From the NCBI GenBank assembly GCA_037574385.1, contig GCA_037574385.1_4529.1: a DNA stretch of 64,000 bases, one strand, 5' to 3'. Positions within the stretch are counted from its first letter, which is position 1, and the number at the start of each line of letters is the position of its first letter. The notes beneath the pieces were generated by a model. The model was not told the origin of the DNA, did no database searches, and saw only the letters and a program-made list of their open reading frames with translations. The position numbers and the translations under genes are program-made. Source of the DNA: a phage. Positions 34,944 to 58,498 of this stretch are shown one piece after another.

Positions 34944-35492
34944 TTAACGAGCCCATTTGATAATTTCTGTAATCAAATTATTACGTTCGCTTGCATTAAA
35001 TCCTATAACTTTGTTAGCACCATCATGATTAAGTAATTGATACGTTTGGATTTTGTTATGAATTGCAAACTCTTCAAAATGTGAAATGACTGTATTAAAA
35101 CCGAATGAAGACAAAGTAATAAGGTCGTCTTCAAAACTTTCAGTCATTTCGTTACGTGTTAAAATAATTGTGAACACATCATGGTTTTGGCAAAGACGAA
35201 TATAATCCTGTTCATAAACGTCAAGAACCGAGTCCGCATCTTGTCGAATACGTCCATAAACCCAGTTACTAATATATCCACGGTCTAATAGATAAATCTT
35301 AGTAGGGTCTAAATAATTCAACATCGTTTCGAAACAGCCAACTTCATTTCGAGACTTAACATCGAAACGCCCATCAACTGTTCGTTTAGGGAAATCAATC
35401 TTTACATATCTTTCACTAATTTCCATTATGTCATTAATGAAAGTTGTTTTACCAGCATTATCCGGTCCGTCTACTAAAATAATTTTAGCCAT
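34944..35492 (-). CDS. P-loop kinase (NMP-kinase/gluconokinase-like fold), substrate unknown
   Basis: 182 aa; Walker A LVDGPDNAGKTT at residues 5-16 and a later hhhhD Walker B-like segment. Confidence 0.55.
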   Translation of the reverse strand: MAKIILVDGPDNAGKTTFINDIMEISERYVKIDFPKRTVDGRFDVKSRNEVGCFETMLNYLDPTKIYLLDRGYISNWVYGRIRQDADSVLDVYEQDYIRLCQNHDVFTIILTRNEMTESFEDDLITLSSFGFNTVISHFEEFAIHNKIQTYQLLNHDGANKVIGFNASERNNLITEIIKWAR

Positions 35493-35493
35493 T

Positions 35494-36393
35494 TTATTCC
35501 TCGATTACGACATCTTCGTATTTAGGTATATTATACGGTGAAGAAATTAAAGCATTAAAGTAGATGAACTCACCAAGACCTGGATGGAATACTTCTTCAG
35601 GATTTTCGAAATATTGAATCTTCGGACGTCCTTTAAGAATTTGATAGTACTCAGTTTTAGTTGGTTTAAAAATTCGAATCAGCGCTTCTTCAGGGTACTT
35701 ATTTCTGTCGAAGCTAATATTTGGATCTGTTATATAAAGCGGTTGGCCTAATTGAATTGCACATTCAACCACTTGTTCAAAACGATAGCACGGGTCACTA
35801 ATTCGAAATGGATGAAAAATACCATCTAGATGAATAGGAGCCAAATCACCTACAAGACGCTGCATGATGGAAGGACGTATAACTTTCTGCGTTACGATAA
35901 TCTTATTACCATCTGCACCTGCGTTAACCAGCACTTCCTTTTGACGTTCATTCAACACAGTAGTTTGAAGTGAACGATTAACCGACAACATATCGGTTTT
36001 TAAGAATTCATCAATATAAAAGCGTGGTTTATTAGGGTCTGTAGTGATATTGAAATTGAATTCCACATCAAAAGCGCCATCATATCCAGTGATATCTGTG
36101 ATTAGAAAATCACAATCATAATAAGCAATTAATGAATCAACCACAAATTCATTTTCAGACCAGAAATATTTACGAGTGTTATACGCGTTATCTTTATACC
36201 ATAATGGAACAAACTTAAATTCCGGGAAAAGACGTTCACATTCTTTAATATCAGATGCATTACGTGGATATGTAATCACATCACCCGGATTAGCACGGTG
36301 CAAATGAAGTTGGAAGTTGCCATCCTTAAGGATAGCATACTGTCCAGTTTCATAAGACCGCATACTCAAGATTGGTACGCGGAAAATAGCCAT
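35494..36393 (-). CDS. hypothetical protein (299 aa) at the position of T4 beta-gt; candidate transferase
   Basis: No motif recognised; placed between uvsX and the hydroxymethylase where T4 encodes beta-glucosyltransferase. Confidence 0.5.
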   Translation of the reverse strand: MAIFRVPILSMRSYETGQYAILKDGNFQLHLHRANPGDVITYPRNASDIKECERLFPEFKFVPLWYKDNAYNTRKYFWSENEFVVDSLIAYYDCDFLITDITGYDGAFDVEFNFNITTDPNKPRFYIDEFLKTDMLSVNRSLQTTVLNERQKEVLVNAGADGNKIIVTQKVIRPSIMQRLVGDLAPIHLDGIFHPFRISDPCYRFEQVVECAIQLGQPLYITDPNISFDRNKYPEEALIRIFKPTKTEYYQILKGRPKIQYFENPEEVFHPGLGEFIYFNALISSPYNIPKYEDVVIEE

Positions 36394-37109
36394 TAGTCAA
36401 GGAATCCTTTAACATAATCAAAATCACGTTCAAACACATGGGCACTTACCATGGTATGAGTATAATCACCAACTTCTACACCGCATTCGTTAGCGATATA
36501 ATGAAGTAATTTTCCTTGGAGATAAAAATCCAACTGCATAACAACAGCACAGTTCTGAGAACGCATATGGCAGTGCGTATAAAGCTTACCATCACGAATA
36601 TAATAAGTAACTGAGTCAGTACATGGATATTCAAGCGTTTCGTCTGAATCAAGCAAAGCCTGATCAGAACTTTCTAGAATTTGGAACACAACTCTTCGGG
36701 AGTTAGGCTTCTCTTTAAGTTCTTTTAGAAGAGCTGGTAATTGGGCCGCAATGCGAGGACCATAGAAAGTGTTGAAGTTCGCCGGCAAAACATCTGATTT
36801 TGGTTTAGAAATAAATTTAGCGACATTAGGATATGCCTTAAACGCTTCTTCTGCGTTGGTACCACCAGAAATCATAAACTTCCAGAAGTCTTCGGCATAT
36901 TCATAAGAGATGCGGTTAATACGTGGGTCGGTCATTTTGAATGATGATGGAGTGTCAACAACTACTGTCATAGACCCAATTTCATTACAACGTCCAATAC
37001 GAGAATCAGTTACGAATTCCGGGTTTTCTAAAATTTCACGATTGACTGCTTTAAATGCGGTTTGAAAATCTGCGGCTTTGATATATTTCATTGTGTTATG
37101 TTTTCCCAT
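36393..37109 (-). CDS. thymidylate-synthase-family pyrimidine nucleotide hydroxymethylase (divergent gp42-like)
   Basis: 238 aa; SRRVVFQILES, EYPCTDSVTYYIRDGKL and VSAHVFERDF align with TS / dCMP-hydroxymethylase motifs (catalytic Cys in PCT). Confidence 0.6.
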   Translation of the reverse strand: MGKHNTMKYIKAADFQTAFKAVNREILENPEFVTDSRIGRCNEIGSMTVVVDTPSSFKMTDPRINRISYEYAEDFWKFMISGGTNAEEAFKAYPNVAKFISKPKSDVLPANFNTFYGPRIAAQLPALLKELKEKPNSRRVVFQILESSDQALLDSDETLEYPCTDSVTYYIRDGKLYTHCHMRSQNCAVVMQLDFYLQGKLLHYIANECGVEVGDYTHTMVSAHVFERDFDYVKGFLD

Positions 37110-37151: not shown

Positions 37152-37391
37152 TTATTTGAATTTCTTGACAATGTTGATATAACGTAAAGCTTCAGCATCG
37201 ATACTTCCAAGGACACTATGAAGAAATGCATCAGCGTAGTATTCCAATTGAATAGGTTCTTTAATCACTTTAGCCGCTTTGGTTTCAAACAGGCCCATCA
37301 GGGCCTTTTTAAGAATTTGTTCGTTGCTGTTAATTTTCGTAGTCAAAATCTCTTCATTAAGTTGGTGGTTAAAAGTTTTTCTAGAAATCAT
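37152..37391 (-). CDS. hypothetical protein (79 aa)
   Basis: ORF within the cassette. Confidence 0.45.
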   Translation of the reverse strand: MISRKTFNHQLNEEILTTKINSNEQILKKALMGLFETKAAKVIKEPIQLEYYADAFLHSVLGSIDAEALRYINIVKKFK

Positions 37392-38563
37392 TCCGGGTAC
37401 CTCAAAGCGTCATCAGAGTTAGTTATATCAATAATAGATATAGAGTTTTCTGCTAACCCATTTTTAGATAATTGACGTTTATAATATCTTTCACAATATG
37501 TACACGTTGACCCACAGATTTCATTAGCACAATCAAAATCAGGATGTCTGAACCACCTTTTTTCTAAAAAGCCATCTAACAAAGAGGTTTCAATATTTAC
37601 TGTATGTGAAAACTCAGTCTCATTTTCAAGAGTGAAAATAGTCTCTAAAGGCTTCCACAGTTCTAACAAATTACCTTCAAACTTTTCAGAAGCGTATGCT
37701 TCAAGAACTTTCAAAATGTAGTCTGTGCTACCTGTACGTCCTGAAACTTTGAATTGAGTGATACCAATATCATTATAAAGTTTCAAATCTTGAGGACGAA
37801 CAAAACGAGTTCTCAACCAGTTAAATGGGTCTGTATCACGAGCTTTAATACAGTGCTGCATTGGATATCCATTTAAGGATTTAGCATCATCAGCTGTAAC
37901 ATCAGTACTATGGAAAATATAGCAAGAGTCACGATAGCTACAATGTGTTGTATACCCTTTACCAGCATTAGAACAGAACTCATTTACAAGAACTTCAAAT
38001 ATTATATTGTTCTTATTGCAAAACTCTGCTGCACGCTTCAGGAAAGAAACTGAACGGTTCTTATGAATTCCACAGCAGACCTTTTTGATATTATATTGGT
38101 CATGCAAGTATTTGATTTGAGTTACGGCATCGACATGTAGAATTGTTGAAACTTCAATCTCAATATCTTTATTGACTTCACGAACAATTTCCATAACAAC
38201 AGGGTTAGCGATAGTAATACGCCATACGCCTATTGACCAAAGATACTGAACATAATCCTGAATAGCTTTCTTCTTCCACTCAACTAGTTCTCTTTTTGAA
38301 CCAGGATTTATCGTGTTGAGTGTATAGTTAAAGCAAATACCTAATTCGTTACAACGTTTAACGTAGTCTTCTAACATCTTTTTGTCAACGTCAGGAAGCC
38401 TAAAATCAGGTCTGGCTGCTACAAAAGCCATTTCTCTTGTAGAGCCATATACTTCGTTTATCAAGCTATTAGGATAGGTTTTATTGAGCTCTACGATTTT
38501 ATCAAGAAGAGCTAAATCAAAATTCGTTCCGATTTTAAAAGTATTCATTTTTTTGCATCTCAC
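37388..38563 (-). CDS. Cys-rich hypothetical protein (391 aa), possibly metal/Fe-S binding
   Basis: Several conserved-looking Cys; C-terminal C-x4-C-x3-C-x2-C (CANEICGSTCTYC). No family assignable by eye. Confidence 0.5.
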   Translation of the reverse strand: MRCKKMNTFKIGTNFDLALLDKIVELNKTYPNSLINEVYGSTREMAFVAARPDFRLPDVDKKMLEDYVKRCNELGICFNYTLNTINPGSKRELVEWKKKAIQDYVQYLWSIGVWRITIANPVVMEIVREVNKDIEIEVSTILHVDAVTQIKYLHDQYNIKKVCCGIHKNRSVSFLKRAAEFCNKNNIIFEVLVNEFCSNAGKGYTTHCSYRDSCYIFHSTDVTADDAKSLNGYPMQHCIKARDTDPFNWLRTRFVRPQDLKLYNDIGITQFKVSGRTGSTDYILKVLEAYASEKFEGNLLELWKPLETIFTLENETEFSHTVNIETSLLDGFLEKRWFRHPDFDCANEICGSTCTYCERYYKRQLSKNGLAENSISIIDITNSDDALRYPE

Positions 38564-38604: not shown

Positions 38605-39006
38605 TTATAGATTCGGTTTATATGATTTAAATGTTTCGAATTCGCCTTTATTCATAAGAGCTTTGAATTCGTCAGGACGCATAGCTTTGTCGTCGATAAT
38701 CCAATCATATACTGGTTTATGTGTTAGCAAATTATGGTACTTCAAGCCAATGTTTGCCAAGTTCTGAATCAGACTTGGGAGAATGTCAATTGCTATACGT
38801 CCAGGACCTACTGACTTCATACCACGAGCAGTGTAAAGCGTTATGGTATGCCCTGCATCATACAGGGCATTAATGGCAGACACCATTTCGACGTCTGGTT
38901 TGAAGTTCACGTAATCGCGATTGTTATTCCATTCTGTGATGCAATCATCGACATCAAAACAAAGATTAAGCATGTTTTCTACACGGTGCATTAGATTTGT
39001 TCCCAT
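38605..39006 (-). CDS. small HAD-superfamily phosphatase
   Basis: 133 aa; motif I FDVDDCIT near N-terminus; later T/S and K/D motifs consistent with a capless HAD phosphatase. Confidence 0.55.
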   Translation of the reverse strand: MGTNLMHRVENMLNLCFDVDDCITEWNNNRDYVNFKPDVEMVSAINALYDAGHTITLYTARGMKSVGPGRIAIDILPSLIQNLANIGLKYHNLLTHKPVYDWIIDDKAMRPDEFKALMNKGEFETFKSYKPNL

Positions 39007-40713: not shown

Positions 40714-40860
40714 TATTCTAGTTAAAGCATTCATACTTTGCCTGTAGACCAATCATAATCCATCCAATTACAAGTGTTGGAATCATTACTGGAGCCGTTA
40801 AGCTCCAGTAGATAGTCATGACAAGCATCAATAGTAAAAGTCCTATTGTTATTGCTTTCA
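40714..40860 (-). CDS. possible small membrane protein (~48 aa, below threshold); positional candidate for Imm-like protein
   Basis: Hand translation MKAITIGLLLLMLVMTIYWSLTAPVMIPTLVIGWIMIGLQAKYECFN; ATG overlaps the upstream stop (ATGA). Confidence 0.35.
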
Positions 40861-41493
40861 TTGTTCGCCTCGTAACATGGCACCTAGTGCACCGCCAGGG
40901 TGGAACTTAAGGAAATCATTAGAGGTAAATCCGCGTTCAGACGAAAGGTTGATAGCGAACGTATCGATAAGCGCTAACAACAATGTAGTGGACATAGTCG
41001 GAGCTAAAGAGTTCTCGTCAACTTCTACCGCGATACCGGTACAGAATGTATAATCAAAAAGAGCTTCGTATTCTTGTGGAATGTCAGGGTTACAATGTAA
41101 CAGAATCTGTTTAACCTGAGGACGAATCATACGAAGATGTTTAGCAACACCTATCATTTCTTCAGTCTTACCAGAACGACTGATGTGAACTAATACATCA
41201 TTAGGTGCAATGAATCCTGCATCACCGTGAGAATAATGCCCAGTGTTCAAATACATGCTAGGAATACCTAGTGAAGCAAAAGTCTCGGAAGCTTTAGTTG
41301 CGATATTAGCGTTCTTACCAACACCTGTAATAATTACACGACTTTCATAATTACTCAGTCCTGGGCGTCGAAGAGTTTCTAGAATAGCATTATAACGAGC
41401 AGGGTTTTGACTAATTACTTTGGCCATAGCGGCCAAAGAAGAAGCTTGTTTTATGATTGCGTCAATAGCGATAGTGATTGGTGTAGTTTTCAT
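40858..41493 (-). CDS. SIS-domain sugar-phosphate isomerase, D-arabinose-5-phosphate isomerase (KdsD/GutQ)-like
   Basis: 211 aa; ITGVGKNANIATKASETFASLGIPS matches the SIS phosphosugar-binding motif; single SIS domain without CBS domains. Confidence 0.65.
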   Translation of the reverse strand: MKTTPITIAIDAIIKQASSLAAMAKVISQNPARYNAILETLRRPGLSNYESRVIITGVGKNANIATKASETFASLGIPSMYLNTGHYSHGDAGFIAPNDVLVHISRSGKTEEMIGVAKHLRMIRPQVKQILLHCNPDIPQEYEALFDYTFCTGIAVEVDENSLAPTMSTTLLLALIDTFAINLSSERGFTSNDFLKFHPGGALGAMLRGEQ

Positions 41494-55743: not shown

Positions 55744-56214
55744 TTAATCATGTTTCCACACCCCATCGGTATTTGACCAAAGTCGCTGATTATCTGATCC
55801 TCGCCACAGCTTTTTAGTCGGAAGATTTTTCTCATACTTCCCATCAATAATAACATCAACATATTTAAGCATTTCTAGCTGTTTAATATCTTCAAACTTA
55901 TATCCTGTCCACAACCAAATGCTTTTATTGGGATAAAGATTTTTAATAGTTTGAACCACAGAGTGAATAACATCTCGGTTATCAGGATAGAGAGGGTCGC
56001 CTCCAGTTATAGTCAATCCTTCTATATAATCATTATTCAAACATTGAATTAATTGTTCTAGTGTTTCACCAGTGAATGGAGCACCATTTCTAGCATTCCA
56101 TGTTGATTTATTATAACACCCTTCGCATTTATGCAAACAACCTGTAACGAAAAGAACGACCCTACAACCAGGGCCATTAACAAAATCGCAAGGATAAAAT
56201 CTATCATAATTCAT
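55744..56214 (-). CDS. nrdG: anaerobic ribonucleotide reductase activating protein NrdG (radical SAM)
   Basis: 156 aa; C-x3-C-x2-C (CLHKCEGC) near N-terminus; directly downstream of nrdD. Confidence 0.9.
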   Translation of the reverse strand: MNYDRFYPCDFVNGPGCRVVLFVTGCLHKCEGCYNKSTWNARNGAPFTGETLEQLIQCLNNDYIEGLTITGGDPLYPDNRDVIHSVVQTIKNLYPNKSIWLWTGYKFEDIKQLEMLKYVDVIIDGKYEKNLPTKKLWRGSDNQRLWSNTDGVWKHD

Positions 56215-58028
56215 TGGTGTTTAACCCTATGCATGATTTCTTTATTTTTACCGAGATTAAATCCGCGTTCGTTCGGATTTCCCAAATAACCGCACGTTCT
56301 TCTTATTGTGTTCATCTTTTTAGGATCAGTTTCTCCGCAAACTGAACAAACAAATCCGTTTTCAGTAGGAGTCATTTCATGGGTACTTCCGCATGTAAAA
56401 CATTTATCCACTGGCATATTAACACCAAAATAATCTAAATGTTGTGCAGCATAATCCCAGACGGCCTCAAGTCCTTTTAAGTTATTTTTCATATCAGGAA
56501 GTTCAACATAAGAAATGTGACCACCTGTCGCAATGAAATGATATGGCGCTTCACGAGAAATCTTTTCAAACGGAGTAATATTTTCTTCTACTGAAACGTG
56601 GAAACTATTAGTGTACCAGCCTTTATCGGTAACATCTTTTACACTTCCGTATTTTTCTGTATCAAGTTTACAGAAGCGATAACAAAGGTTTTCAGCAGGA
56701 GTCGAATATAAACTAAAAGCAAATCCAGTTCTTTCAGTCCACTGTTTAAGATGAGCATTCATTTTAGTTAAAATTTCTTGCCCAATATCACGACCGACAA
56801 GAATATTCAATTCGTGAATACCAATGTATCCCAAAGACACTGAACTTCTACCGTTTTTAAATAACTCAATTATGTCGTCATCAGGTTTAAGACGAACACC
56901 GAATGCACCTTCTTGGTAAAGAATAGGAGCAACAGTCGCTTTAACTCCTTTTAAGGAACTAATTCTACACATCAAGGCTTCAAAACACAGATCCATTCGT
57001 TCATTGAATAATTCAACAAATTTCTGTTCATTGAACTGTGTTCCAATATAAGAATCTAATGCGATACGAGGAAGATTCAGCGTTACAACACCTAGATTAT
57101 TACGCCCATCAAGAATTTCATTACCGGTTGAATCTTTCCACACACTCAAGAAACTACGGCAACCCATTGGAGAAACTGGAACTGAAGAACCGGTAATAAC
57201 TTTGTTATTCTTAACCGAAATGATGTCAGGATACATTCTTTTGCTTGCACATTCTAAAGCAAGCTGCTTAATATCATAGTTCGGGTCGTCTTTATAAAGA
57301 TTAACACCTTCTTCAATGAACATAACAAGTTTAGGGAAAATAGGAGTTATCCCATCACGTCCAAGACCTTTAATCCGATTTTTCAGAATTGCTTTCTGAA
57401 TCATTCGTTCAGTCCAATCGGTTCCCATGCCAAATGTAATTGTTACAAAAGGCGTTTGTCCATTTGAACTAAAGAGAGTATTTACTTCATATTCATAAGC
57501 TTGGAATGCATCGTATACGTCTTTTTCTGTTTTAGATTGAGCATAATTCAACGCATCAGCGATTTGCCATTTTTCTGCATCTTCAACATGTTTAGCGTAT
57601 GTGCGTTTAACATAAGGAGAAAGAACTTTATCGACATTCGCAAATGTAGTTCCGCCATACTGATGTGAAGCAACTTGTGCGGTAATTTGTGCCATAATTG
57701 CAGTAGCAACACCAATTGATTTAGGCGTTTCAATTTGAGCATTGCCTAATTTAAATCCATTCTCAAGCATCCCCTTTAAATCGACTAAACAGCAATTAGT
57801 AAATGGAAGAGCAGGAGAATAATCAATATCATGCATGTGGATAATTCCACTTTCATGCGCATTCATAATAAAAGACGGGACCATATTTTTGGCAATGTGC
57901 TTAGACACAATACCAGCCATAAGGTCCCGTTGAGTTGGAAAAACACGAGAATCTTTATTAGCATTCTCGTTCAAAAGATCTTTATTAGTTTTATGAATTA
58001 ATCCTTCAATTTCTTTTTCAATTTTCAT
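56211..58028 (-). CDS. nrdD: anaerobic ribonucleoside-triphosphate reductase NrdD
   Basis: 605 aa; C-terminal zinc site (C..C...C..C) and glycyl-radical motif RTCGYLG; uninterrupted (no intron). Confidence 0.95.
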   Translation of the reverse strand: MKIEKEIEGLIHKTNKDLLNENANKDSRVFPTQRDLMAGIVSKHIAKNMVPSFIMNAHESGIIHMHDIDYSPALPFTNCCLVDLKGMLENGFKLGNAQIETPKSIGVATAIMAQITAQVASHQYGGTTFANVDKVLSPYVKRTYAKHVEDAEKWQIADALNYAQSKTEKDVYDAFQAYEYEVNTLFSSNGQTPFVTITFGMGTDWTERMIQKAILKNRIKGLGRDGITPIFPKLVMFIEEGVNLYKDDPNYDIKQLALECASKRMYPDIISVKNNKVITGSSVPVSPMGCRSFLSVWKDSTGNEILDGRNNLGVVTLNLPRIALDSYIGTQFNEQKFVELFNERMDLCFEALMCRISSLKGVKATVAPILYQEGAFGVRLKPDDDIIELFKNGRSSVSLGYIGIHELNILVGRDIGQEILTKMNAHLKQWTERTGFAFSLYSTPAENLCYRFCKLDTEKYGSVKDVTDKGWYTNSFHVSVEENITPFEKISREAPYHFIATGGHISYVELPDMKNNLKGLEAVWDYAAQHLDYFGVNMPVDKCFTCGSTHEMTPTENGFVCSVCGETDPKKMNTIRRTCGYLGNPNERGFNLGKNKEIMHRVKHQ

Positions 58029-58498
58029 TTTAAACTCTTTCTAAGCTGCTTTTTGAATGAAGATATTAATTGTGTTTTAGTATCAGATTCATTATATTCA
58101 AATCCTCTTTGAAGCATCTCAGCCATCATTTCCTCTTTACCTAGTCTTGAGAACTCTTTAGTTTTGTCTGGAACAAAATTAGGATGGATATTATTATCAG
58201 AATAATCTTGTTTCAAATAAGCAAGAAGAGCTTCAAGCCATTCGAGGTAATCAACGTTTTGACCTTTCAAACCGGAACGGTTGAACTTATGCTTCATTTG
58301 ACCTTCTGCTGCGTTGCACAGATTACAGAGTAATCCACGAACTCTACCGGCTTTTGGCCCGTTTAATTCATGGTCGTGGTCAAGATGGTTACCTTGAACA
58401 TCAGAGTCTAATTCACGGCGGCAAATAGGACACTTACCGTTCTGTGCATCATAAAATTTTTGTTTTTCTTCTTTATATTTTGCGCCTGATAATAACAT
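58025..58498 (-). CDS. 49: endonuclease VII (gp49), Holliday-junction resolvase
   Basis: 157 aa; ...KEEKQKFYDAQNGKC.IC.REL..DVQ.NHLDHDHELNGPKAG.VRGLLCNLCNAAEGQMKHKFNRSGLKGQ.VDYLEWLE matches T4 EndoVII. Confidence 0.95.
   Translation of the reverse strand: MLLSGAKYKEEKQKFYDAQNGKCPICRRELDSDVQGNHLDHDHELNGPKAGRVRGLLCNLCNAAEGQMKHKFNRSGLKGQNVDYLEWLEALLAYLKQDYSDNNIHPNFVPDKTKEFSRLGKEEMMAEMLQRGFEYNESDTKTQLISSFKKQLRKSLK

Follow-up and report, generated by a model that had tools for sequence, protein, structure and literature searches.

The 64,000-nucleotide stretch of phage DNA analysed here (NCBI GenBank assembly GCA_037574385.1, contig GCA_037574385.1_4529.1; hereafter the window) comes from a T4-like Mosigvirus and carries, within a DNA-modification cassette, a minus-strand gene for a cysteine-rich protein of the U32 family. 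An earlier note, made from the DNA letters alone, had drawn attention to this open reading frame (ORF) at 37388..38563. The ORF is present, encodes 391 residues counted from GTG, and contains 14 cysteines, with the C-terminal C-x4-C-x3-C-x2-C motif that the note described. The true start is probably the ATG at 38548, five codons downstream of the GTG, which would give a 386-residue protein beginning MNTFKIG; this start is favoured because the alignments with all homologs and with PHROG 5757 begin at this ATG, and conservation does not extend to Cys3. Residue numbers refer to the 391-residue version throughout.

The protein had been described as of unknown family. This description does not stand, as it matches Peptidase_U32 (PF01136) with 42.2 bits against a gathering cutoff of 22.4 over residues 99-291 and has the U32 TIM-barrel fold; PF01136 was found in all listed homologs. 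The gene is already known and is labelled 'peptidase' in databases, where 'putative protease of the collagenase family' also occurs as a label, and U32 hydroxylases are an already known kind of enzyme. Both the U32-motif cysteine pair and the K-(I/V)-x-G-R motif are present: hhalign places C208/C214 on RlhA C169/C176, such that 'C214-YIFHS' is the counterpart of RlhA 'C176-YISH', and FKVSGR on FKIEGR. The spacing differs from the U32 motif by a 10-residue insert after C197. Profile comparison (hhalign) against the four E. coli U32 paralogs ranked RlhA highest (E 8e-6, residues 46-258 aligned), followed by TrhP (E 1e-3, N-terminal half only) and UbiU (E 6e-3), while UbiV gave no match apart from a 17-residue stretch around C238 / UbiV C39 (E 0.18). 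The phage protein contains PF01136 only, lacks DUF3656 and has 386 residues rather than 653, and is therefore not an RlhA ortholog. The NCBIfam model for UbiU equivalogs (NF047963) scored 18.4 bits against a cutoff of 440. By these sequence comparisons, the protein is orthologous to none of RlhA, TrhP, UbiU and UbiV. It belongs to a separate subfamily, and all members examined come from phage or phage-like contigs. Among 1.84 billion cluster representatives, a profile search matched 497 at E<=1e-30, and 1,163 matched at E<=1e-10; most of these have 350-390 residues and match over the full length. Searching the Protein Data Bank (PDB) with the protein sequence yielded no match, and searching it with the family profile yielded one spurious match, to BIM1 (E 0.019).

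Cysteine makes up 3.6% of the protein, compared with 1.23% in the 66 long ORFs of the window, and the C-terminal motif, C345-ANEI-C350-GST-C354-TY-C357, is the only cluster of four cysteines in 13 residues within the window. The sole other clustered-cysteine proteins there are NrdD and NrdG (55744-58040). A four-cysteine cluster arises in shuffled versions of the protein at P about 0.06, and over all ORFs the expected number of such windows is about 0.25. Cysteine composition by itself is thus weak evidence for a metal or iron-sulfur (Fe-S) site, for which conservation provides stronger support. Nine cysteines (C163, C197, C208, C214, C238, C345, C350, C354 and C357) are invariant in 120/120 homologs of 48-88% identity. 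Among 131 divergent full-length representatives, C238 is found in all, C197 in 129, and C208 and C214 in 80; the four C-terminal cysteines are present in 109-116, the remainder being alignment gaps, and K272 and R276 are invariant. The C-terminal cluster lies in a block with a pLDDT (predicted local distance difference test) of about 95 and is a probable second metal or [4Fe-4S] site. Together, the core and C-terminal cysteines probably bind two Fe-S clusters, in which case the gene would encode a soluble U32-family enzyme with iron-sulfur clusters. The suggestion that the cysteines mark a metal or Fe-S site is therefore well borne out at the level of conservation. The C-terminal CX3CX2C was also considered as a radical-SAM motif, and this reading found no support, as the motif does not lie within a radical-SAM core domain.

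The genes of the cassette all lie on the minus strand, in the order DNA polymerase, SIS isomerase, nucleotidyltransferase/kinase, HAD phosphatase, U32 gene, 79-residue ORF, ThyA homolog, 299-residue glycosyltransferase, thymidylate-kinase-like gene and UvsX (Table 1). The cassette is 98% identical to that of phiC120 along its length. Conservation is highest for the U32 protein, which retains 82-89% identity where the AfhE-like enzyme retains 42-73%. In RB69, all C in the DNA is replaced by derivatives of 5-hydroxycytosine (5hoC), and the base is arabinosylated 5hoC rather than hydroxymethylcytosine (hmC) (Lee et al., NAR 2026, PMC13326640). The ThyA homolog RB69 gp48 is a 5-hydroxy-dCMP (5-hydroxy-deoxycytidine monophosphate) synthase that binds flavin and takes its oxygen from O2, as judged by 18O2 labelling; the synthase and a kinase are enough for 5-hydroxydeoxycytidine formation in E. 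coli, with no need for gp50, and the sugar genes lead to UDP-arabinose (PMC13326640). The RlhA and TrhP hydroxylation pathways are cited in that paper only as unrelated to gp48 (PMC13326640). The AfhE-like gene (561 residues) and the 299-residue glycosyltransferase gene are each one intact ORF in the window. The RB69 reference record divides each of them in two (p052/p053 and p046/p047), and the intact ORFs fit the published statement that these splits are sequencing errors.

Table 1 Features of the window that are discussed in the text.
Feature	Position	Strand	Basis
Thymidylate-kinase-like nucleotide kinase, RB69p045 ortholog	34944..35492	-	PHROG 761; PMC13326640 Table 1
299-aa glycosyltransferase, RB69 gp46:47 ortholog (first arabinosyltransferase on 5hoC)	35494..36393	-	PHROG 3891; PMC13326640 Table 1
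ThyA homolog, RB69 gp48 ortholog	36393..37109	-	Pfam Thymidylat_synt; 236/238 identical to RB69p048; function from PMC13326640
79-aa 'type B' ORF, RB69p049, phrog_8601	37152..37391	-	75/79 identical to RB69p049
U32-family Fe-S protein (predicted), RB69 gp50/RB69p050 ortholog	37388..38563	-	385/389 identical to RB69p050
C-terminal cluster C345-x4-C350-x3-C354-x2-C357 (CANEICGSTCTYC)	37493..37531	-	Invariant in 120 homologs
Core cysteine region C163...C197-x10-C208-x5-C214...C238, including the U32-motif cysteines	37850..38077	-	Invariant in 120 homologs
HAD-like phosphatase of UDP-arabinose synthesis, AfhF / RB69 gp51 equivalent	38605..39006	-	PHROG 1238; 127/128 identical to RB69p051; PMC13326640
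Bifunctional nucleotidyltransferase/kinase, AfhE / RB69 gp52:53 equivalent, 561 aa	38991..40676	-	Pfam NTP_transferase and weak kinase matches; PMC13326640
SIS-domain arabinose-5-phosphate isomerase, RB69 gp55 ortholog	40858..41493	-	Pfam SIS and PHROG 5670; 206/211 identical to RB69p055
NrdG, anaerobic ribonucleotide reductase activase	55744-56214	-	Fer4_12 167 bits and Radical_SAM
NrdD, anaerobic class III ribonucleotide reductase	56211-58040	-	Pfam NRDD 571 bits and Gly_radical; RTCGYLG glycyl-radical motif

The earlier note had placed the gene between a 'hydroxymethylase' and the HAD phosphatase. The location in the cassette is right, and the 79-residue ORF intervenes on the 'hydroxymethylase' side. 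That neighbour is an ortholog of the 5-hydroxy-dCMP synthase (236/238 to RB69 gp48) in phages that make 5hoC (PMC13326640), and the framing of the cassette around hmC chemistry is therefore outdated. We found no support for the proposed 'unusual transferase'. A redox step in base modification, the other role put forward, is probable, and the gene does belong to the cassette. Thus, the earlier interpretation is upheld in part, for the metal or Fe-S site and the redox step, and not for the unknown family, the transferase or the hmC framing. Conservation of the cysteines and a family related to nucleotide metabolism, the two points on which the note had staked its proposal, both came out in its favour. 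When the cassette was scanned for promoters and terminators, there were 20 matches against 26.8 expected and 3 against 3.5, respectively, from shuffled sequence, hence no excess, and nothing is inferred from a TATAAT just upstream of the U32 gene, as the promoter matches are not above those in shuffled sequence.

Linkage of the U32 clade to prephenate supply

The characterised U32 proteins, RlhA, TrhP and UbiU/V, are factors in O2-independent, prephenate-dependent hydroxylations, two of which act at pyrimidine C5. Prephenate is a required co-substrate or oxygen donor for all of them (PMC5727448, PMC6599085, PMC10990095). RlhA forms 5-hydroxycytidine 2501 in 23S rRNA and needs prephenate synthesis, the isc Fe-S machinery, the U32-motif cysteines and C-terminal cysteines (PMC5727448). 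TrhP forms 5-hydroxyuridine (ho5U) in tRNA in a prephenate-dependent, anaerobic manner; the unrelated TrhO makes the same base with O2, and organisms hold both enzymes or either one (PMC6599085). In anaerobiosis, the flavin/O2 hydroxylases of ubiquinone synthesis give way to UbiU/V, which are [4Fe-4S] proteins with prephenate as the oxygen donor by 18O labelling, and the chorismate mutase domain of PheA alone brings back their activity (PMC10990095).

The 79-residue ORF, here called type B, and the U32 stop codon overlap in the sequence ATGA. Type B takes the place that a chorismate mutase has in relatives, or adjoins a chorismate mutase. Serratia phage LC53 (44.6 bits with Pfam CM_2, cutoff 27) and Enterobacter phage Entb_45 (40.9 bits) each have an AroQ chorismate mutase as the small ORF over the U32 stop codon. 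In other genera, ORFs in the type B position or adjoining it score 36-65 bits with CM_2, and the range across the U32-linked chorismate mutases is 36-72 bits. A tblastn search found the LC53-type chorismate mutase in 51 of 50,697 phage records, and in 51/51 it lies in the cassette next to the ThyA homolog and U32. Phages with a cassette chorismate mutase have Klebsiella, Serratia, Yersinia, Enterobacter, Edwardsiella, Erwinia, Pectobacterium, Providencia, Morganella, Kosakonia and Shewanella hosts, and also include Escherichia phage EcS1; the gene order in the T4-like phages is U32, (type B), chorismate mutase, ThyA homolog. Yersinia and Pectobacterium phages carry type B and chorismate mutase in tandem, and type B is therefore a separate protein, which may be a U32 accessory factor. 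We considered type B as a degenerate chorismate mutase and rejected this, since it has no Pfam or NCBIfam match at E<10 and hhalign to phage chorismate mutases gave a 0.3% probability. The 114-residue chorismate mutases of LC53, CHI14 and EcS1 start with an N-terminal stretch that resembles type B (MRRINHxMNE...), a similarity in sequence that suggests a fusion or a remnant.

The linkage extends to distant U32 relatives of 45-58% identity from metagenomic phage contigs (tier 2). In jumbo-phage contigs of 194-294 kb, a 107-residue CM_2 protein (55 bits) follows straight after U32. Other loci encode 3-deoxy-D-arabino-heptulosonate 7-phosphate (DAHP) synthase near U32: L043 (2202-7089) has a DAHP-synthase-chorismate mutase fusion (125 and 65 bits) at a distance of one gene from U32, L040 (4399-5433) has another close upstream of U32, and in L028 (7080-7823) the U32 stop codon is overlapped by an ORF of the DAHP-synthase family (142 bits). 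The U32 clade is thus linked to the chorismate/prephenate branch by three independent gene arrangements, and an entry to the shikimate pathway encoded by phages seems to go with DNA-modification cassettes. The cassettes of these three contigs also carry an AfhE-like enzyme, a kinase and a HAD phosphatase. A chorismate mutase might also feed a CmoA-like synthase of carboxy-S-adenosylmethionine (compare the carboxymethylcytosine phage system, PMC12783734); this candidate was dropped, as the cassette contains no methyltransferase or CmoA-like gene.

Distribution among phages and hosts

At the tier-2 loci, the neighbours of U32 are thymidylate-kinase-like, dCMP deaminase, dUTPase/MazG-like, deoxynucleoside kinase, uracil-DNA glycosylase, SIS, NTP-transferase and glycosyltransferase-like genes, beside a replicative polymerase, and no ThyA homolog was detected within the locus windows. 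At six of these loci, U32 is translationally coupled to an upstream ORF that is homologous to the 299-residue glycosyltransferase of the window (hhalign 99.3%, E 1.9e-20). We therefore used the 5hoC-glycosyltransferase family as an anchor and scored +/-10 kb around 36 IMG/VR loci with custom hidden Markov models. One locus, a 4.4-kb fragment, was left out of the count. The other 35 comprise 15 with both the ThyA-type enzyme and U32, 15 with the ThyA-type enzyme only, 5 with U32 only and none with neither. Within a distant glycosyltransferase clade, one locus has the ThyA homolog without U32 and its relatives have U32 without the ThyA homolog. This pattern of both, either and never neither is what is expected if the ThyA-type enzyme and U32 supply the same intermediate. 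In the U32-only cassettes, U32 is coupled to the glycosyltransferase homolog and is flanked by dNMP (deoxynucleoside monophosphate)-kinase-like, dNTP (deoxynucleoside triphosphate)-pyrophosphatase-like and further glycosyltransferase-like genes; this layout is the usual one of a modification module at the dNMP level, with U32 in the hydroxylase slot.

Several individual loci have features of their own. On a 466-kb contig (L004, 7447-9086) and a 60-kb contig (L007, 7504-9083), the U32 homolog comes straight after a dCMP deaminase, beside a DnaE-type polymerase, a uracil-DNA glycosylase and a thymidylate-kinase-like gene. This gene content hints that some U32 relatives may hydroxylate dUMP rather than dCMP, which would lead to DNA based on 5-hydroxyuracil. 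The ORFs straight after the tier-2 U32 gene in L036 (7086-7976) and L031 (7090-8157) have sub-threshold matches to TAGT (TET-associated glycosyltransferase, 22.6 bits) and GT47, and are further candidate DNA-base glycosyltransferases that would act on the hydroxylated base. A second, very divergent U32-like ORF (377 residues, faint Pfam match) lies at 13227-14360 in L005, 4 kb from the U32 homolog, with a radical SAM/SPASM gene just upstream and a nucleoside deoxyribosyltransferase-like gene just downstream; by analogy, the two U32-like ORFs may form a UbiU/UbiV-like pair.

Among phage records, U32 was found in 222, all at >=80% identity, and the summary names and 60 listed rows show Enterobacterales or Shewanella hosts only. 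The AfhE-like marker is present in 374 records, among them 57 from Acinetobacter phages and one from a Pseudomonas phage. The HAD gene of Acinetobacter phage AM101 and that of Pseudomonas phage PspYZU05 directly abut the ThyA homolog, with no U32 in between; therefore, U32 and the small ORF constitute a two-gene insertion at the HAD/ThyA junction. Acinetobacter phage DLP3 makes arabinosyl-5hoC without U32 (PMC13326640). The window itself encodes NrdD and NrdG, which indicates a phage built to replicate without O2, while the known cytosine hydroxylase needs O2. Among Dhakaviruses, Escherichia phage Bp7 (L011, 4971-9151) has AfhE-like, HAD, kinase, ThyA-type synthase and glycosyltransferase genes, without U32 or chorismate mutase, a gene set that predicts strictly oxygen-requiring DNA modification. 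As a rule that all phages of facultative anaerobes carry U32, the host pattern fails on the Dhakaviruses; it holds in the form that U32 is seen only in such phages.

Proposed function and its alternatives

From comparative genomics, we infer that the U32 gene product is an O2-independent, prephenate-dependent pyrimidine C5 hydroxylase that would provide an oxygen-free route to 5-hydroxy-dCMP. We hold this to be the probable function, with considerable room for doubt. The U32 enzyme would be the anaerobic counterpart of the adjacent flavin/O2-dependent, ThyA-type 5-hydroxy-dCMP synthase. That the neighbouring ThyA homolog is an O2-dependent 5hoC hydroxylase gives the U32 gene a plausible job, and TrhO/TrhP (ho5U) and UbiI/H/F versus UbiU/V are precedents for paired O2- and prephenate-dependent routes to one product. 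dCMP is favoured as the substrate because of the dNMP-kinase and dNTPase context; direct hydroxylation of cytosine in DNA is less likely. The mechanism would follow the one suggested for UbiU/V, in which the substrate ring undergoes a two-electron oxidation and the electrons would leave via the Fe-S clusters, here those predicted at the core cysteines and the C-terminal four cysteines. Prephenate would then decarboxylate and aromatise to phenylpyruvate, its hydroxyl being passed to C5. The resulting 5-hydroxy-dCMP would proceed via the dNMP kinase and DNA polymerase to the arabinosyltransferases, which would use UDP-arabinose from the SIS, AfhE-like and HAD enzymes. In Mosigvirus, host PheA/TyrA would be the source of prephenate, and most related phage genera would use their own chorismate mutase, encoded beside U32.

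Several points weigh against this proposal. RlhA and TrhP act on RNA polymers, not on free nucleotides, and the substrate level assigned here is a guess. No U32 hydroxylase has been reconstituted in vitro so far (PMC10990095). The window phage has no chorismate mutase within its 64 kb, the Mosigviruses having kept type B and lost chorismate mutase, and for this lineage the prephenate link therefore rests on homology to relatives. About 39% of the distant representatives have C208/C214 replaced, and the core set of Fe-S ligands is provisional. 'U32-only' describes windows of +/-6-10 kb (12-20 kb) rather than whole contigs. The E. coli Dhakaviruses have the ThyA-type enzyme and neither U32 nor chorismate mutase, and U32 is thus not required for infecting facultative anaerobes; more generally, the correlation with host oxygen is confounded by phage phylogeny. 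Finally, the one published assignment for RB69 gp50 differs from ours: it appears in PMC13326640 as a table entry only, which gives 5d88 as the best structural match and, as a guess, 'sugar or heterocycle reductase', and the text is silent on it.

That published guess belongs to a broader alternative, in which the protein is a redox helper, either a reductase that regenerates flavin for the ThyA-type synthase or the sugar or heterocycle reductase of the pathway that Table 1 of PMC13326640 lists for RB69p050. Two conserved cysteine clusters would suit an electron-transfer protein. A helper of this kind is nevertheless improbable, as the ThyA-type synthase and kinase yield 5-hydroxydeoxycytidine in E. 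coli without gp50, Acinetobacter phages make arabinosyl-5hoC without U32 (PMC13326640), and UDP-arabinose synthesis is already accounted for by AfhE and AfhF. Five U32 cassettes without a ThyA-type enzyme would also be unexpected, and the recurrent linkage to chorismate mutase and DAHP synthase would be left unexplained. The cassettes without a ThyA-type enzyme are also awkward for a phage RNA hydroxylase of the RlhA/TrhP kind, acting on host or phage tRNA or rRNA and tuning translation, for which the location in the cassette would be incidental: in these cassettes U32 is coupled to a homolog of the 5hoC-DNA glycosyltransferase amid dNMP and dNTP enzymes. The best-scoring characterised relatives are indeed RlhA and then TrhP, and because both use prephenate, the chorismate mutase linkage fits this alternative just as well. 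However, the phage protein has neither DUF3656 nor the C-terminal RNA-binding extensions of RlhA and TrhP (386 residues versus 653 and 453), the hosts already have both enzymes, and its distribution is complementary to that of the ThyA-type dCMP hydroxylase. We thus regard an RNA target as unlikely.

The database labels 'peptidase' and 'putative protease of the collagenase family' imply a collagenase-like U32 peptidase, which might process a phage or host protein, and the U32 proteins PrtC and HP0169 were reported to be collagenolytic (cited in PMC5727448). U32 proteolysis has no known catalytic mechanism, however, and in E. coli the U32 proteins characterised by genetics are all hydroxylation factors. 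Invariant cysteines of the Fe-S type, a nucleotide-metabolism context and linkage to chorismate mutase have no rationale in a protease, and we give this possibility very little weight.

If an O2-independent pyrimidine hydroxylase is indeed encoded, prephenate-dependent hydroxylation would extend from RNA and quinones to DNA precursors and viruses, and hydroxypyrimidine hypermodification would become predictable in uncultivated phages without a ThyA homolog. A DNA-directed, phage-encoded U32 hydroxylase paired with an O2-dependent isofunctional enzyme would be new. We did not find the idea of an oxygen-free, U32-dependent route to hydroxycytosine in the searchable literature, in a scope that excludes He et al. 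2026 (Nat Chem Biol) and Mahler et al. 2025 (Cell Host Microbe), and the Thanatos, Durham and 2018 RB69 papers do not mention the U32 gene. For RB69-like phages, the route to arabinosyl-5-hydroxycytosine became known only in 2025-2026, with a hydroxylase that draws its oxygen from O2. For gut-infecting RB69-like phages with an anaerobic ribonucleotide reductase, the proposed function addresses both the anaerobic modification of DNA and a U32 gene that had no role. It predicts that a gp50 mutant would have an anaerobic growth defect, that modification would depend on host pheA/tyrA, and that 18O would be transferred from shikimate. A soluble mononucleotide substrate would make possible the in vitro assay still missing in the U32 field, and with it a first reconstitution. 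The question is relevant to phage therapy, in terms of which phages retain anti-restriction DNA modification in the anoxic gut.

A bolder form of the proposal is that this is the first virus-encoded and the first DNA-directed prephenate-dependent hydroxylase, a self-contained, two-cluster U32 enzyme that takes its oxygen from an organic donor, acts on free dCMP and is needed for infection without O2, and that the approximately 500 divergent proteins related to it (clustered at 50% identity, E<=1e-30), which come from large phages not in culture, are the sole hydroxylase of glycosylated 5-hydroxypyrimidine cassettes. We advance this only tentatively, and would sooner doubt it in full than accept it. 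If true, glycosylated 5-hydroxypyrimidine DNA would be widespread in viromes of uncultivated large phages.

Comparison with known systems

The structural match named for RB69 gp50, Mk0906 (PDB 5d88, a U32 'peptidase' of Methanopyrus kandleri), differs from the phage protein in having 14% identity, 247 residues and no C-terminal four-cysteine segment. RlhA (YdcP) is closer. It shares the Pfam family and gave the best profile match, it has the U32-motif cysteines and an essential C-terminal cysteine group, and its reaction is the cytosine C5 hydroxylation that is proposed for the phage protein; its dependence on prephenate and Fe-S is genetic (PMC5727448). However, RlhA contains DUF3656 within its 653 residues and acts on a ribosome assembly intermediate, whereas the phage protein has 386 residues without DUF3656 and a deoxynucleotide or DNA as the predicted substrate. 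The C-terminal cysteines are also arranged differently, as C572-x7-C580...C611-x2-C614 in RlhA and as CX4CX3CX2C in the phage protein.

UbiU-UbiV are likewise U32 Fe-S proteins and the anaerobic counterpart of flavin/O2 mono-oxygenases, UbiI/H/F. The heterodimer holds two [4Fe-4S] clusters, comparable to the two cysteine sites of the single phage polypeptide (PMC10990095). The Ubi system differs in its lipid substrate, its need for the partner UbiT and its heterodimeric state, and its sequence similarity to the phage protein is weak. RB69 gp48, DLP3 gp80 and the HY126 homolog have the same predicted product as the U32 protein and are encoded in the same cassette, two genes from U32, yet have an unrelated fold and depend on flavin and O2 (PMC13326640); the gp48 type is found in all T4-like 5hoC phages, in which U32 is optional. 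The pairing of these two enzymes most resembles TrhP/TrhO, which form ho5U34 in tRNA. The O2-dependent partner in the phages is a flavin-using ThyA homolog rather than a rhodanese, and the phage substrate would be DNA-directed. In both systems, an O2-independent U32 protein, predicted as such in the phages, and an unrelated O2-dependent enzyme would lead to the same 5-hydroxypyrimidine, and the states with both enzymes or either one are also seen in the phage cassettes.

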